Shown one piece after another: positions 57,538 through 64,000 of a DNA stretch of 64,000 nucleotides. The position numbers and the translations under genes are program-made. Position 1 is the first letter of the stretch. Every line of letters starts with the position of its first letter. Source of the DNA: Porphyridium purpureum (Eukaryota); assembly GCA_008690995.1 (NCBI GenBank), contig VRMN01000003.1, positions 682,001-746,000 of the forward strand. The letters are read 5' to 3'. Under the pieces are notes generated by a model. It did not search any database and was not told the origin of the DNA. It saw nothing but the letters and a program-made list of their open reading frames with translations.

Positions 57538-58150
57538 CCTGTCGGGAGCTCGTGCGCCAACACGCCGAGCCGAAGCATCCGCTCTGCGCACCCGCGCTGC
57601 ACCCGCGCTGCACCCGCGCGACGTTCACCCTTTTTCGGCAAGACGCAGCCGCACTCACCCAGCCCCTTGATAAAACCGCGTCACCTTCATCATGCGCGCG
57701 CAGCGCTGTGTGATAATTCCCGCCTAAATCCATATGAACGCGCGCACCAGCACAGCCGATTTATTTTACAACCCCGAACGCCAGCTCGCAGCCGCGCTGC
57801 CACGCGCGCTCACCTTGCGCGCGCCCCGCAGAACGCACGCGTACTGCTCACACTGTACACCACCTCTCACTGTACCGCACCGCCTGCCGAGCTGTACCGC
57901 GCGCGGAGGAGATTCGAGGTCAATGCTTTCGCTCGGTGGAGATGAGATCCCTGGCTAATGAAAACACCGCACCTGGATCCCTAACGATTCGCAGCCGCGC
58001 GTGGCGCTATCAGGGACGGTTGTGTCGGTCTCGGGGTTGGCGTGTCGCAGCGGGTTGTGGGTGGGAGAGAAGAGGGGTTAAGCAGGGTGGCGGTGGGGAG
58101 AGGCGGAGGGGCGACACGTGCACGTGACACGAGGGGAGCAGGCCGGAGAG

Positions 58151-59144
58151 ATGGCGTGCTTTGTGGGAGCAGCAACGTCCGCGCCGGTGCGAGGCACCCG
58201 CAGCGCCGTCGAGTCGGCCCGCGGAGCGCCGCGCCGCCGCGCGCCGCAGCCGCGCGCAGCTGCGCATGAAGCAGGACGACTACGAGCAGTGGAAGACCGA
58301 GTTCGCGGGCGGCTTCCCGGGAGGCGAGGCCTTCTACAAGAAGTGGATCGAGGAGGGCGCCAAGGGCGACGTGCCTGCGCTGGAAGAGGAGCTCCAGCCC
58401 AGGTCGCCCAACAAGAAACCCACCATTTACGAAGAGCAGATGATCTCGAACCGCGGACAGCAAAAGGGCGTGGACCCAACGTGGAAGACGCTGCTTGCGG
58501 GAGGATTCCCTGGCGGTGAGTTCTTCTTCAAAAAGTGGATTGGAGAGGGAGCTCAGGGCGAAGTGCCCAACCTGGACGCTGACCTGCAGCCGGGCTCTGG
58601 CAGTGCGAAAAAGACCGGGAAGAAGGAGGACGCGGACAAGTCCTCCCCTGGAGGTATCATGACGCCCGGCCGCATCATGGTTCCGTCTGGCCTGGGTGAG
58701 GAAGAAGAGACTGTGGACAAGGAAGCGCCACGGCCGGAGCTTTATAATAAGTACTTCTCAGCGGATCGCCTGCACAAGGCCCCAGAGATCCTGTTTGAGT
58801 ACAACAAAACCAAGTATGACCGCGTTGGCGTACGATACACGGAGGTCACGTCGAAAGCCTCGGAGCGATTCTTCCCCAAGTCCCGTATGAATAGGGCGCC
58901 AGTGATTGAAATCAGCTATCGCGAAGGCGCGGTGTCGACTGCCAGCGTTTCGCTGAGCATGCCAGAAATCAGCGGACCGCCCGCACTGCCGTTCCCTGTA
59001 CCAAAGGGTGACGTGACGACGACGATGGTGACGGACCCGACCACGGGAAGGCTGAAGCTTGAGTTCAAGGTAGACGGCGCAGCGGTCTCTGCGTACTCCG
59101 ATCCTCGTGCCACCGAGGCGTACAACAAAATGATCAGAAAGTAA
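58151..59144 (+). CDS. Probable nuclear-encoded phycobilisome (rod-core type) linker protein; apparent frameshift in the transit peptide
   Basis: Two repeats WKTxxAGGFPGGExFxKKWIxEGAxGxVPxLxxxLQP and two [YF]F.....xxAPxI motifs that I associate with red-algal linkers (recall, unverified). The MACFVG transit start at 58151 is out of frame with the LRM-KQDD mature region at 58266. Confidence 0.65.
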
Positions 59145-59274
59145 TGGTCATGTTTGACGACTGAACAAAATAAATAGTCCTCAGCTCTCCCCACCCTGAA
59201 AATGACCCTCGTTTGCATCCACCGGATTGGAGTGAAGGGAACAGATTCTCTTGTGGAACCGCAGCTCTTTGGCA

Positions 59275-59934
59275 ATGATATCCTTCGCGTTACCATTCTC
59301 TGATGGGGTTTTCATCGATGCAGTGAATGTTTTCGGTCGTCTGGCCGAGCAGGCACCTGTGGACTTCACATCGACCTACCGACGTTCCACGCAGCGCGCA
59401 GACTTTGCTTTGTGGCTGCCGTGCCGCTTCAGTCGTCGCTTGATGGTTTTGGATCCGCATTGGCGTGATGTTTTGTTCGCAGACAGCGTCAAAGGAAGGA
59501 ACGGGAGTCGCTCCATTGACTTGCAGCAATTTCAAGAAAGGATTCGATCGGCTACTTTCATGTATCCAATGGACGCCAACACAGGTCGCGCTGTGCGTCT
59601 ACCAGAGGGATTCAGTAGTGTCGCAATGTGGGGCTCGAACGGCGATATCAATGGGTCCTTACAGCGCCTCGCGAAAAGGGCTAGAGACGCCGACGGCCAG
59701 GTAGAGCCTGTCGACACGCTGCTTAGAGATGTCCAAGCGTGGTTTCAAGCCCGACAGATTGGGACCCAATTTCTGGAGCGCGCCTTTGAAGTTCTGGGCA
59801 GCGATTTGACAACCAACACATTGTCTCGAGATAGCGTGGAAATTACGATTCTGCAGCTTGCGCGGGCCGTCGACCCGGATCCTAGCGACGCTGTGCTCGA
59901 TTGGACCACTTGGGTCCATGCGCTTACGCAATGA
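59275..59934 (+). CDS. Hypothetical protein (about 219 aa)
   Basis: ATG-started ORF with protein-like composition; no motif recognised. Confidence 0.5.
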   Translation: MISFALPFSDGVFIDAVNVFGRLAEQAPVDFTSTYRRSTQRADFALWLPCRFSRRLMVLDPHWRDVLFADSVKGRNGSRSIDLQQFQERIRSATFMYPMDANTGRAVRLPEGFSSVAMWGSNGDINGSLQRLAKRARDADGQVEPVDTLLRDVQAWFQARQIGTQFLERAFEVLGSDLTTNTLSRDSVEITILQLARAVDPDPSDAVLDWTTWVHALTQ

Positions 59935-60374
59935 GCTCACAAAGGTGCTTCTCGAGAGCCAAGGAAGGCATAAAATTTGTAGATGCTGCGCGCATGTTTC
60001 GGTGTGAATTTTGTGTTCGACAAAGTTTTGGTGAGTGAAAGGCATACTTGCGCCACACTGCACGCGAACTGTAGCAGTATTGTCTGTGCAACCGCGAAGA
60101 TCTGCTCCTCTGCGGCGCGCTGCCAGCGGGAGTGGGGAGCACTGATGGCGCACGGTTTCCACGCAACAAGAGCGACGTCGACAAAGGACCTAATAGCACG
60201 GGCTATGTGAATCACGATACATGATTGAGCGACGTTTGACTGACCGGCGCACGCGACGTCATCAGAATCTTGTTTTTCTCAAGTACTGTTCAGATCATGA
60301 ACATGTACGAGACCATAAGTTGAACATGTCATGATGAGAGCATCATACTCGAGGTAACCCATAGCCTCACATGC

Positions 60375-62495
60375 TCACCAAGCTGCCGCGTTCTGCAGGG
60401 AAAGCACAATTGCTCTCACATGACCGACTTGCATGGCATTCAGCTCTGATGCTGGTGGATCGCTTGACTGTTGCACAATCATTTCGACGATGAACTTCAG
60501 ATCTTGACCCTGCGTGAGCAGATCTCGAATCGTCTTCAAACCATTATCTTCAAACTCTCTCGAATAGAGCTCAAACTCACTTCCCAGCGAGGTCATGAAG
60601 TCGGGAATGCTCATTGAGCTTGCAATCTTACACACTTCCAGTTCCTTGATGTCTTTCGCGGGGACCAATCCCTTTCTCACAAGCTCAGCGTGGGGCACCA
60701 CCCTGGCAGTAGCCCAGTCAATTTCGCGCCCGCATCCCGATTCACCAGGGGAAGATACTTGATGCGCACCAGACTTTGAGTCTGTATCGCCAAGGTCCTG
60801 CACAAGGGATTCTTGAACCCCTTTGTGCACCACTCTGAACACTCGGCGTATACCCGACAGATCCCTGCCGCCAAAGTCATCTCTCTTGCCTTTTAGAATT
60901 TTCAGCCTGCGAACGAGTCGGAACGGGTCGCTTCGGTCCTCGGTGTATTCGTAGCCGTACGGCGTATCACGCGGTACATCGTGGCCTTCGTCACGCTTCC
61001 GTACCGTGCCGCATATGTCCAACCTACTGCAGCCCCTTGGCTTCAAGAAAATGGTGTTACAATAAGGGCATGCCTTGAACACGTCGTACGATCCGTCAAC
61101 TGGATACTGCATAGCAACACCTCCCAGGACAGCGCTCAACTCAGCCGCCAGCACTTGTTTTACGTAGTTCAGGACTGCGATTCTTGCGTTCATTTCATCC
61201 TCGTTGCTTGCATCCAACCAAAGCTCATCCAGCGGCGCTCCGACAAGTTTAGCGGTGGCTTCCATCGCACATTCTTCAGAGCTGTCGTCTGAGAATTTGA
61301 AGATGATATCGATGGTGGGCCCAACCATATCCACATAGTTCCCTGAAATCTTCTTGTTCCCATGATCATAAGCTTTTCGATTCACTGCTGCAGACAATTC
61401 CTCGCGCGCCAACGCCGCCCGCGCAGCTATCTCGGACCGCGCGTCGAACAGAATATCCGCGAGGTCTGCGTTCTGGGGCTTGGGTATGTGAATAGGGAAT
61501 TCGCGGAGACACTCAACGAGCGGAATCTTGTAATTCGTATTCCAGTCCTTAGCATATCCAGCCAGCGCGACAATCGAATCGTACAGCCACTTCACTGACA
61601 CGTCTGGACCAACAATAGCGACTGGACCCACGAAAGGCAATCTCGATCGCACCTGGTCCACAAACTGTTGGTACTCAAAGAATGGCCGCTTTCCATCCAA
61701 CTGCGAGCGCGTTTTGATTTTGCTCACGTATGCATCTCGATGTGTGAGTACCAAGAAGACTTGGGTCCTTTTGAGCGGTTCGTTGGATGATCCCCGCTTC
61801 AACATCGTGACATGAATTCCGCCCTTATCCTTCTTGAACGTGTTGCAATTCAAAATGGAATCCAGGCTGTTTCCCTGGATTCCTGCAATGAAATCTTCAG
61901 CTCGGCATGATACGGGCAATGGTGCAACCAGCACAATTTGGGTCACATCGCCAGTGATCAACGCCTTACGGATTTCCATGGCTTCATCAAAAGCAATGCT
62001 TTGCCCCAGACCTGGCGTATCGACCACATTTAGATCTTTCGCAGGACCTTGCGTTCGCGCAGATACCATCTTCTTCGTGCAAGTCTGCGTCGCGTATGAA
62101 GTCAATCCAATATCTCCAGTGAGCTTCTTGTGCAACGAGGTCTTTCCACTACCCTGACCGCCCAGAAGCAACATGGTCTTGTTGACGAACGACGGCACCG
62201 CCTCTCTCATTTTGTAGTCTTCAACTTGCCTACGCACATGCTCCGGTAAAAAAAGCTCGCCCTTCGTCGGGTCATAGGATGGTGCCATTGGATCATTTTG
62301 GTATTGAGTCACAAGGACATCCGCATTAAGAACGTGATTCGCAACTTGCACCTCCAGCCACAGCTTCTCTGGAGTCTCTGCTGCAGCGACTATGACGCGC
62401 GCCTGCTCGTTCGGGTCCAGTAGGCGTCCAGCCATCCAGGGCTTCACCGTTCCGTCGTCGTTCCTGAGTGTGAATCCTTCATAGTCATAACACAT
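60375..62495 (-). CDS. TRAFAC/AIG1-like P-loop GTPase with Cys-rich Zn module and C-terminal SAM-like domain (in frame with the upstream MACPF ORF)
   Basis: G1 GGQGSGKT, G2 TCT, G3 VVDTPGL, G4 LVLTHRD; CPYC..KPRGC....CG...GCG..IDW; SIPDFMTSLG..FELYSREFEDNGL...GHVRAI. Confidence 0.8.
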   Translation of the reverse strand: MCYDYEGFTLRNDDGTVKPWMAGRLLDPNEQARVIVAAAETPEKLWLEVQVANHVLNADVLVTQYQNDPMAPSYDPTKGELFLPEHVRRQVEDYKMREAVPSFVNKTMLLLGGQGSGKTSLHKKLTGDIGLTSYATQTCTKKMVSARTQGPAKDLNVVDTPGLGQSIAFDEAMEIRKALITGDVTQIVLVAPLPVSCRAEDFIAGIQGNSLDSILNCNTFKKDKGGIHVTMLKRGSSNEPLKRTQVFLVLTHRDAYVSKIKTRSQLDGKRPFFEYQQFVDQVRSRLPFVGPVAIVGPDVSVKWLYDSIVALAGYAKDWNTNYKIPLVECLREFPIHIPKPQNADLADILFDARSEIAARAALAREELSAAVNRKAYDHGNKKISGNYVDMVGPTIDIIFKFSDDSSEECAMEATAKLVGAPLDELWLDASNEDEMNARIAVLNYVKQVLAAELSAVLGGVAMQYPVDGSYDVFKACPYCNTIFLKPRGCSRLDICGTVRKRDEGHDVPRDTPYGYEYTEDRSDPFRLVRRLKILKGKRDDFGGRDLSGIRRVFRVVHKGVQESLVQDLGDTDSKSGAHQVSSPGESGCGREIDWATARVVPHAELVRKGLVPAKDIKELEVCKIASSMSIPDFMTSLGSEFELYSREFEDNGLKTIRDLLTQGQDLKFIVEMIVQQSSDPPASELNAMQVGHVRAIVLSLQNAAAW

Positions 62496-62498
62496 CTC

Positions 62499-63743
62499 CT
62501 ACACGCTGTCCCACAACCGGACGGGGGACGAGATGAAGCCGTTGCCAATATATCCATGCAAGATGTTCTCCTCTCCACTTCCAAGATCCAACTGTGGAAT
62601 CTCCTTCGTCGGTGGGACGCGCCCAACGAGCTCAGCCAAAGGGAGCTTGCGGTACTCCCAGCATTCCGTCGACTTTTTCTCAAGACGGGCAATCTCAGCG
62701 TCCACTTGGTTCTCATACGGACGAAGCACAAGCTCACGCTCCCTTGCCGAGCATCCGTGCACGGTCCAACGCTCCATCTTAGCGCTTTCGAGGCGCGCCT
62801 TCCAAAGAGAGGCGACCGCAAGGCACTCGCCCACAGTTTGCATCTTTTCGTCCAGCAAGGATGCCTCGGCTCTGCTCAACTGGGTGAGGTAATTTGCGAT
62901 GTTCGCGAGCGAAAACCCAACAACAGTCATCCGGTCCGTGCGTGTCAAATCCTCCAGGTCCTGGTCGGCGCACTCCTGCAAGGCCTTGGAGTCAGCGTTG
63001 AATTCCTCAATCAGCTTCACTACTTCGTCCAGATTCGGCGTCGCAGGACAAACGAAGTTGACTCCGCTCGCAGTTGCAGAAATCTCGAGCGAAAGCTGGT
63101 AAGAGCTTTCCTCATTTCGGCGAGCGAAGTCGGCAGAAAACTCCACCGACAGAGGTCTCACACCAATAGCTCCCTTCAGCTTGGCCATAATATCCGACAG
63201 ATCCGTATCCTCCGAAGAAGTGACTGAAAACTGCACGTCCAGCTGGCACCCGAAGAAAATCTGGTCCACAAACTTTGTACCATACCGATCGGCGATGTCA
63301 TCTCTACCAAACTCGTTTGATGCCAGCATCGACGCGAGGTCGCTGACGGGCTCAAGCATGCCTTTGTCGCCCTGCTTTATCTGGGCAAGGGAGTGGCAAA
63401 CACGGCTTCTGTACCGCAGCGTAGACCTGCGCGAAGTATGAACCGATTGCGAGAGATACGTTCCGGAACCTGCGCCAGAGATAAGCGGTCCGTACGAAAC
63501 GCTCAAGTGGCCTGCGATTTCCATGTGCTTTTTGACTTTGTCATCCGAATCCATGATCTCGCAGAAGACAGACGCATGCTTCGCGGTCTTGAAGACTGTG
63601 CGCCCGTCATCCACCTTGAACGCACGACGCTTGAAGGCTTCCTCACCGCTCTGGATGTTGAGTTTGAACCCGCGGCCGAGGTCGTACGCAGACAGGCCCT
63701 GGGGAAAGCCGTTGCCTACAATGACAGGAACGATCTGCACCAT
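62499..63743 (-). CDS. Stonustoxin-like MACPF/CDC pore-forming domain protein
   Basis: EIMDSDDKVKKHMEIAGHLSVSYGPLISGAGSGTYL and YGTKFVDQIFFG resemble the stonustoxin N-terminal domain and the MACPF YGTHF...GG signature; followed by a helical region. First ATG at 63743. Confidence 0.72.
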   Translation of the reverse strand: MVQIVPVIVGNGFPQGLSAYDLGRGFKLNIQSGEEAFKRRAFKVDDGRTVFKTAKHASVFCEIMDSDDKVKKHMEIAGHLSVSYGPLISGAGSGTYLSQSVHTSRRSTLRYRSRVCHSLAQIKQGDKGMLEPVSDLASMLASNEFGRDDIADRYGTKFVDQIFFGCQLDVQFSVTSSEDTDLSDIMAKLKGAIGVRPLSVEFSADFARRNEESSYQLSLEISATASGVNFVCPATPNLDEVVKLIEEFNADSKALQECADQDLEDLTRTDRMTVVGFSLANIANYLTQLSRAEASLLDEKMQTVGECLAVASLWKARLESAKMERWTVHGCSARERELVLRPYENQVDAEIARLEKKSTECWEYRKLPLAELVGRVPPTKEIPQLDLGSGEENILHGYIGNGFISSPVRLWDSV

Positions 63744-64000
63744 TTTGAATCCCACACCGCCCTGTGCCCCGTCCGCTATCAACACTCCATTTTTTCTGGA
63801 AGACGAGTGCCCTTGCCCAATTCAGATTCACAACCTCCACGCCTTGCCCTCGTGCGTCCCAACATGGCTTCCTCAGCCTTCTTCTCGATCTACTTTCAGC
63901 TTATGTAACCCATCAGGAGAACTCATGTCCAACCTTGCGTTGCATGAGGATCGCTCACAAGTTCGTTGTCGCGGTGAGTGGACATCATGACTTCGTTCGC

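Follow-up and report, generated by a model that had tools for sequence, protein, structure and literature searches.

A predicted MACPF/CDC-GTPase-SAM fusion protein in the red alga Porphyridium purpureum, with a stop codon polymorphic between cultures

Known perforin-type pores are controlled by secretion, receptors, pH or proteolysis. MPEG1/perforin-2, perforin, TgPLP1, GNIP1Aa, Mpf2Ba1 and the cholesterol-dependent cytolysins (CDCs) are secreted or luminal proteins that carry C2, MABP, beta-prism or D4 binding domains, and stonustoxin-like proteins with AIG1- or septin-type G domains are annotated in fish, invertebrates and fungi. To our knowledge, almost nothing is known of the immune effectors of unicellular red algae. 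Here we analyze a gene of Porphyridium purpureum that lies on the minus strand (63743-60375) of a window of 64,000 nucleotides (contig VRMN01000003.1, positions 682,001 to 746,000) and is predicted to encode, in 1122 codons, a MACPF, a helical and a small beta domain fused to a GTPase, a second helical region, a Cys module and a SAM domain, with a nonsense allele in the sequenced culture. The reading we favour, to which we give an even chance, is that this protein, which lacks a signal peptide, acts in the cytosol as an effector of defence or cell death, and that its assembly, driven by GTP and by the SAM domain, would lead to a MACPF pore.

Among proteins of solved structure, the best sequence match is stonustoxin (alpha and beta chains, PDB 4WVM), in which the MACPF domain is followed by a helical domain, as it is in the algal protein. 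One account (PMC8704401) has the stonustoxin hairpins forming a beta-barrel and lists thioredoxin and PRY/SPRY domains among the features of the toxin. These two domains have no Pfam or PDB match in the algal protein, where a GTPase follows instead, and the Pfam families MACPF_SNTX and Stonustoxin_helical are matched neither by the algal protein nor among the 25 families listed for 63 of its relatives. Comparison with VIA aligns 251-295 residues of the algal amino-terminal module to stonustoxin (Z 10.2-10.4, root-mean-square deviation 3.9-5.0), spanning residues 5-381 of the beta and 4-340 of the alpha chain. The long helical hairpin that follows the algal MACPF core (residues 291-365; 62649-62873, minus strand, as for all features of the gene given below), seen in the structural model and in the VIA alignment, is positioned like the FAT-like domain of stonustoxin, by the domain borders given in the same source (PMC8704401). 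Identity between the two proteins is 10-12%, and the algal protein differs from stonustoxin in joining a GTPase, a Cys module and a SAM domain to the MACPF part in one chain.

The presence of a MACPF/CDC fold in the amino-terminal half is a secure prediction. The AlphaFold 2 (AF2) model of the first 470 residues (predicted local distance difference test, pLDDT, 88.7; predicted template modelling score 0.88) displays a bent four-stranded antiparallel sheet with two flanking helical clusters, and the core assigned to residues 1-285 (62889-63743) draws on this model together with Foldseek, VIA, Atlas and a profile search of the PDB. Foldseek returned 60 matches at E<=0.001 (best E 2.6e-7), headed by GNIP1Aa, a Bacteroides MACPF protein, perforin, C8 and stonustoxin; the 42 matches listed are all pore-former folds, 41 of them MACPF/CDC and one aerolysin-type. 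VIA ranks 1-16 are likewise all MACPF/CDC (Z 8.0-10.9, with values up to 11.9 in VIA overall), followed by aerolysin-type, astrotactin and gasdermin rows, and the first row that is not a pore-former has a Z of 3.9. The Atlas neighbours of the module are MACPF, CDC and SNTX (MACPF_SNTX) clusters at 0.92-0.97. The stonustoxin alignment that the initial annotation had put forward was reproduced by searches of the PDB, both with the single sequence (phmmer, stonustoxin-alpha, E=0.0089 over residues 54-222) and with a profile of 63 family members (stonustoxin-beta, E=1.1e-5). At its curated cut-off, the Pfam MACPF model (PF01823) does not match the window protein; it matches 19 of the 63 aligned members at E<=0.1 and reaches the cut-off in 3 of 54 relatives. 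Regarding the branch of the fold to which the module belongs, stonustoxin is structurally tied with MPEG1, TgPLP1 and GNIP1Aa, and it is sequence that favours the stonustoxin side. A small beta domain (residues 373-469; 62337-62627), modelled at a pLDDT of 87-96 by block and interrupted by the stop codon discussed below, closes the module, and it is conserved up to profile position ~465 in stand-alone relatives.

The algal module shares with MPEG1/perforin-2, perforin, TgPLP1, GNIP1Aa, Mpf2Ba1 and the CDCs (Z 8-12) not only the fold, but also two helical clusters at the positions of the transmembrane hairpins (TMH) and a beta periodicity within them. TMH1 (~residues 64-105; 63429-63554) is helical in the model, with a strand-like first half and a Gly/Ser-rich, weakly amphipathic second half, and TMH2 (~residues 177-216; 63096-63215) comprises two helices with strong beta-strand periodicity. 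For the first strand of TMH1, the beta hydrophobic moment is larger than the alpha one in 56 of 57 rows, and for the strands of TMH2 in 61/62 and 59/59, as compared with 1/60, 5/57 and 13/55 in control helices, these counts being drawn from related and hence non-independent rows. Three of the four TMH strands are thus strand-like in periodicity despite being modelled as helices. The MACPF signature, Y/W-G-T/S-H-F/Y-x6-G-G, has a partial counterpart at residues 154-166 (63246-63284), in which G155, T156, F158 and G165 are kept, the His is replaced by Lys and the second Gly by Ala or Cys; G155 and G165 are conserved in all 62 rows having a residue there. As opposed to the secreted pore-formers, the algal protein has no signal peptide, in agreement with the cytosolic location initially proposed, and its second half is a GTPase module.

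This carboxy-terminal half opens with a TRAFAC P-loop GTPase (61539-62183; Pfam MMR_HSR1, 25.7 bits for a cut-off of 21.9) that is predicted to adopt the G-domain fold and has intact G1-G4 motifs, conserved among relatives, as the initial annotation had claimed. The same annotation had assigned it to the AIG1/GIMAP class, to which it bears a resemblance. GIMAP7 (E=0.012) and Toc33 (E=0.016) are among its sequence matches, and with GIMAP/AIG1, Toc33/34 and IRG GTPases it has in common the G1-G4 motifs, a G4 of Thr-His-x-Asp type and a helical extension. The domain nonetheless falls under the Pfam AIG1 cut-off, its close relatives reaching at most 25.6 bits, and belongs to a separate family made up of a G domain, helices and a Cys module. 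Structural Z values for FeoB (12.9), Era (12.1), GIMAP7 (11.8) and Toc33 (11.6) lie within ~1.3 Z of each other, and the Foldseek list for the whole half is headed by the IRG GTPases Irgb6 and Irgb10, but at a root-mean-square deviation of 23-25 Å. A three-helix bundle follows the G domain in the structural model (61110-61463). The chain closes with a predicted five-helix SAM domain (60381-60614), assigned from helices 631-706 of the model, the profile of the carboxy-terminal half and the Pfam matches of relatives. The SAM-like tail of the initial annotation is thereby supported: the nearest SAM domains in a profile search of the PDB are those of SARM1 (9e-6), and 7 of the 48 relatives scanned score above a Pfam SAM cut-off, the window copy itself giving a match under the cut-off to SAM_CEP-1_C (E=0.0024).

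Between bundle and SAM domain lies the Cys module, whose first part (C892, C895, C905 and C911; 61008-61079) is modelled with low confidence and whose second part (C1004, with a Trp six residues on; 60708-60740) follows a variable insert, the two being separated by 46-268 residues across relatives. All five Cys are conserved in aligned rows (C892 29/29, C895 29/29, C905 25/30, C911 28/29, C1004 27/27), and the four most conserved could bind one zinc. Of 60 representatives examined, 37 bear the motif, and 30 of these retain the fifth Cys, which lies within a Gly-Cys. This additional Gly-Cys, 13 residues past the first Cys of the CxxC, together with the Cys-x5-Trp at the end, constitutes a likeness to the Rcat (RING2) domain of RING-between-RING (RBR) ligases, and its spacing is reminiscent of that of their catalytic Cys. 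The module has no Pfam or PDB match, no RING1 or IBR lies upstream, where the helical bundle and the GTPase stand, and a profile of the helical and Cys parts gave two chance-level matches in the PDB and no RBR. Structural searches yielded no match for it either, although those run with the carboxy-terminal half were swamped by the G domain and barely probed the module; in Atlas, the helical/Cys part has one cluster at 0.80, which is a lead only. Parkin, HHARI and HOIP have a His two residues past the catalytic Cys, as part of a triad (PMC3940038), and such a His is found in 0 of the 37 motif-bearing representatives. Within the sequences retrieved, P0118-P0145 make up a wide eukaryotic family, Paramecium included, with a G domain, helices and a CxxC...GC...CG...GCG...W pattern; it has no Pfam model past the G domain and its conserved extra cysteine merits a study of its own. 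P0140 carries the Cys module and a SAM-like part followed by an extra tail that has no Pfam match and, by eye, presumably resembles an ADP-ribosyltransferase.

The frame that joins both halves is interrupted once. On the minus strand, 414 codons lead to an amber codon (62501-62499), the sole in-frame stop, and 707 codons follow in the same frame; the coordinates and motifs first reported agree with the window sequence. We checked this site in 8 of 24 sequencing runs (three raw RNA runs and five via contigs), and the stop is carried in three and missing from five. In the three runs with the stop (X9, X11 and X12), which come from three studies, the contigs are identical to the window over this site; those of X3 and X8 have no stop there, and in the raw RNA runs the stop base is replaced in 9/9, 14/14 and 3/3 reads. 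In two runs the cleanest of these reads differ from the window nowhere else, and they do not stem from the paralogs P0002 and P0003 described below, because these differ at the flanking residues. Since three runs carry the stop and five lack it, it is a genuine polymorphism between cultures, and its presence in three independent studies rules out assembly error as its source. The public gene model of the locus (P0001, 1079 residues) bypasses 43 codons, stop included, by means of a 129-nucleotide GT-AG intron (62627-62499). None of the reads examined supports this intron: three RNA runs, all from stop-less cultures, have no splice joint for it, and the residues it removes are conserved in the paralogs. 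RNA is present in 30 of 30 bins across the gene, with no splice joints, although paralog reads may map at the 95% level used and the depth is therefore not specific to this gene. It comes mostly from the coding strand, with first mates mainly on the plus strand, as expected of minus-strand RNA in most stranded libraries. The stop falls within the well-predicted beta domain, ~50 residues short of the natural end of the module. The existence of uninterrupted paralogs and of stop-less reads settles the matter of the two open reading frames raised at the outset: they are one gene.

The two halves represent separate protist families, both seemingly uncurated, of which the first combines MACPF with interchangeable tails and the second is a GTPase-helix-Cys-SAM family with a conserved extra Cys. 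A profile search with the amino-terminal module over 1.84 billion representatives gave 144 matches. Stand-alone modules end where fused ones do and continue, among 54 scanned, into ricin-B, WSC, fn3, dermatopontin, VOMI, MORN and other tails; by a crude hydrophobicity rule, a signal-like start is present in 31 of 52 relatives with a complete amino terminus and in none of the 3 fusions in the set. This module occurs in the diatom Detonula and the dinoflagellate Yihiella, and the other in the dinoflagellates Cladocopium and Symbiodinium and, more distantly, in Paramecium. Proteins joining both, as the fusion hypothesis had anticipated, do exist. Nine of the proteins collected, from three lineages, match both profiles: those of Porphyridium and, at about 30% identity, two unrelated lineages, P0004 (1171 residues, all parts present, about 29-30% identity) and the P0169 cluster, which runs from MACPF through G4. 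The P0169 sequence itself stops after G4, and the Cys-SAM fragments P0060 and P0185, which lie on contigs equal in length to those of cluster members, may supply the remainder there. In a careful MACPF tree of 32 chosen rows, from which near-duplicate, partial and several long-branch rows were left out, the four fused MACPF domains group together in a single clade (95/88), and a quick tree of 74 rows joins the fused domains with three to four unfused rows (Shimodaira-Hasegawa-like approximate likelihood ratio test, 99). Judging from these sequences, the fusion is old, shared with distant lineages and retained. Red algae other than Porphyridium are absent from the named matches. Two pattern scans of viral contigs confirmed none of 88 and none of 48 stretches and one of prokaryote genomes gave no match, but these scans are insensitive and do not imply absence; an equally insensitive scan of metagenome contigs confirmed 5 of 18, every one with the amino-terminal module only.

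Dictyostelium offers a partial parallel. DDB_G0280583 is a distant relative of the MACPF module that, by inspection, has no signal peptide and carries a GTPase domain downstream. It differs in having MORN repeats between these domains and no Cys module or SAM, and its G domain is of another type, unmatched by the profile of the algal carboxy-terminal half; the family also sits on a separate long branch. Hence, the family is likely to be an independent MACPF-GTPase fusion, and the pairing is probably recurrent, with Dictyostelium as one case. The name DDB_G0280583 was not found in the literature searched, and neither was, judging from titles and abstract openings, a description of this architecture or of any MACPF protein in Porphyridium. 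The GTPase-Cys-SAM half as a partner of MACPF, together with both protist families, appears to be uncurated. The uncharacterised Dictyostelium proteins P0097, P0101, P0107 and P0121 combine a MACPF-like domain, MORN repeats and a GTPase, and within this set one has a legume-lectin tail and one a repeated MORN-GTPase unit; they constitute a tractable system in which to pursue the same question.

In the mechanism we favour, assembly driven by GTP and by the SAM domain would concentrate the molecules on a target membrane, either that of an intruder or the cell's own, which the MACPF hairpins would then enter to form a beta-barrel pore. The place of the GTPase-Cys-SAM half is occupied in secreted relatives by a binding domain, and this half likely does the same job inside the cell, substituting for a lectin tail both in finding the membrane and in triggering assembly. 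The architecture, the predicted folds, the hairpin pattern, the G motifs, transcription, the three paralogs and the antiquity of the fusion are what the analysis shows, and GIMAP7, Toc33 and IRGs among the nearest solved GTPases, along with SARM1 as the nearest SAM profile, also speak for this scheme. From these we infer pore formation, GTP gating and a role in the cell; that this role might be defensive is suggested by analogy and by the birth-and-death pattern of the paralogs. A more elaborate version, which we regard as improbable, would have a one-chain, cell-autonomous immune machine of protists and algae in which the GTPase finds the intruder membrane, the SAM domain nucleates assembly, the Rcat-like Cys tags with ubiquitin and the perforin-type domain punches the hole. 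If true, it would unite the jobs of IRG/GBP GTPases, RNF213-type ligases and pore-formers, which are separate in animals. More generally, a cytosolic MACPF protein with a built-in nucleotide switch would, if confirmed, represent a new mode of control for perforin-type pores. The hypothesis is testable, as there are natural cultures of both kinds, stop-carrying and stop-less, and the alga is described as genetically tractable (PMC6110788, PMC10866757).

Several observations weigh against this scheme. The second strand of TMH1 is weakly amphipathic, with the beta moment exceeding the alpha moment in just 22 of 57 rows; in the window sequence itself just one of the four TMH strands beats shuffled sequences at p<0.05, and the tip of its TMH2 is an Arg where 45 of 61 rows have Gly. 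Astrotactin, a non-lytic MACPF protein, is among the structural matches. The GTPase scores 21.5 bits with Pfam AIG1 (PF04548) for a cut-off of 27, and its subfamily is ambiguous on the modelled structure, FeoB and Era scoring as well as GIMAP7. The fusions are not grouped in a GTPase tree of 21 rows, although the approximately unbiased test fails to reject a single clade (p=0.386). Finally, cultures carrying the stop live, though they could make a MACPF piece of 414 residues free of the GTPase. Their survival means that the freed piece is insufficient to kill, or is not made; it also argues against a simple release switch of the gasdermin type, provided that the piece is neither degraded nor misfolded.

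An alternative is a non-lytic role in membrane remodelling or signalling, in which the MACPF ring would serve as a scaffold and the GTPase and SAM parts would act in trafficking or in organelle or vacuole control. Toc33/34, FeoB and Era are as near to the algal GTPase as immune GTPases are, MACPF proteins without lysis exist, and the gene is expressed in cultures that look unchallenged. On the other hand, a core function sits poorly with so patchy a distribution, with a nonsense allele that is tolerated and with paralogs that change fast, and the alternation in the TMH regions is kept family-wide; we consider such a role unlikely, if worth keeping in mind. It also seems rather unlikely that the protein is a stored cytolysin aimed outward, cytosolic until freed by damage to act on grazers, parasites or competitors; the GTPase half would then inhibit or target it. 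Stonustoxin, which itself is not known to have a signal peptide, is the nearest solved sequence, and many relatives look secreted and bear lectin tails. Nevertheless, the GTPase, the SAM domain and the unpaired-looking Cys motifs require a cytosolic setting, and the fusions have no lectin, thioredoxin or PRY/SPRY binding domain.

The history of the gene within the alga bears on whether it functions at all. Used as a query with the stop read through as X, the frame has three matches, all in Porphyridium purpureum: P0001, the model of this locus, and two paralogs without interruption, P0002 (1159 residues, 81% identity) and P0003 (1077 residues, 77% identity, without SAM and with a changed G4). 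Identity is 85% in the MACPF part and 59-74% in the more diverged carboxy-terminal parts. A tblastn search found no second copy within the window and no notable repeats flank the gene. By analogy, three dispersed paralogs, a loss of SAM, a nonsense allele and diverged carboxy termini make up a birth-and-death pattern typical of defence genes. Composition gives no sign of recent transfer: GC content at third codon positions (0.67 and 0.57, for 0.49-0.64 in 23 other long open reading frames) is host-like. The same pattern could be read as decay, with an acquired gene whose copies drift to functionless pseudogenes, given the stop, the state of P0003, the Arg at the TMH2 tip of the window copy and the end of P0169 after G4. 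However, both paralogs and the stop-less allele keep an open frame exceeding 1070 codons, at 77-81% identity, the window copy and P0002 keep all G motifs and Cys, and the window gene is transcribed over its full length, which makes decay decidedly improbable. The nonsense allele is likely tolerated because two intact paralogs remain. That the locus consists of two adjoining genes, or of an assembly error, is hardly credible: although a stop splits the frame and each half occurs alone in other organisms, that stop interrupts a folded domain, the fusion is present in the paralogs and in two distant lineages, reads traverse the site stop-free and independent studies carry the stop.

Further observations concern the copies and surroundings of the gene. 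At 60600-60700, some RNA reads (12 in X22, 38 in X23) are window-like on the SAM side and P0003-like upstream in the gene, pointing to a fourth copy or to a mosaic between paralogs. Many two-letter sites, at roughly 20-80% of reads, occur over 60041-63992 in the 2026 RNA runs, also outside the gene, and may reflect mixed cultures, two haplotypes or a near-identical duplicate. At 59900-60450, reads running the other way extend over the 3' end of the gene, consistent with a convergent neighbour. Near that end lies an open reading frame of 232 codons on the plus strand (59236-59934), with no Pfam match, and another on the same strand (58128-59144), also without one, contains a 111-nucleotide unit repeated twice and presumably resembles a phycobilisome linker.

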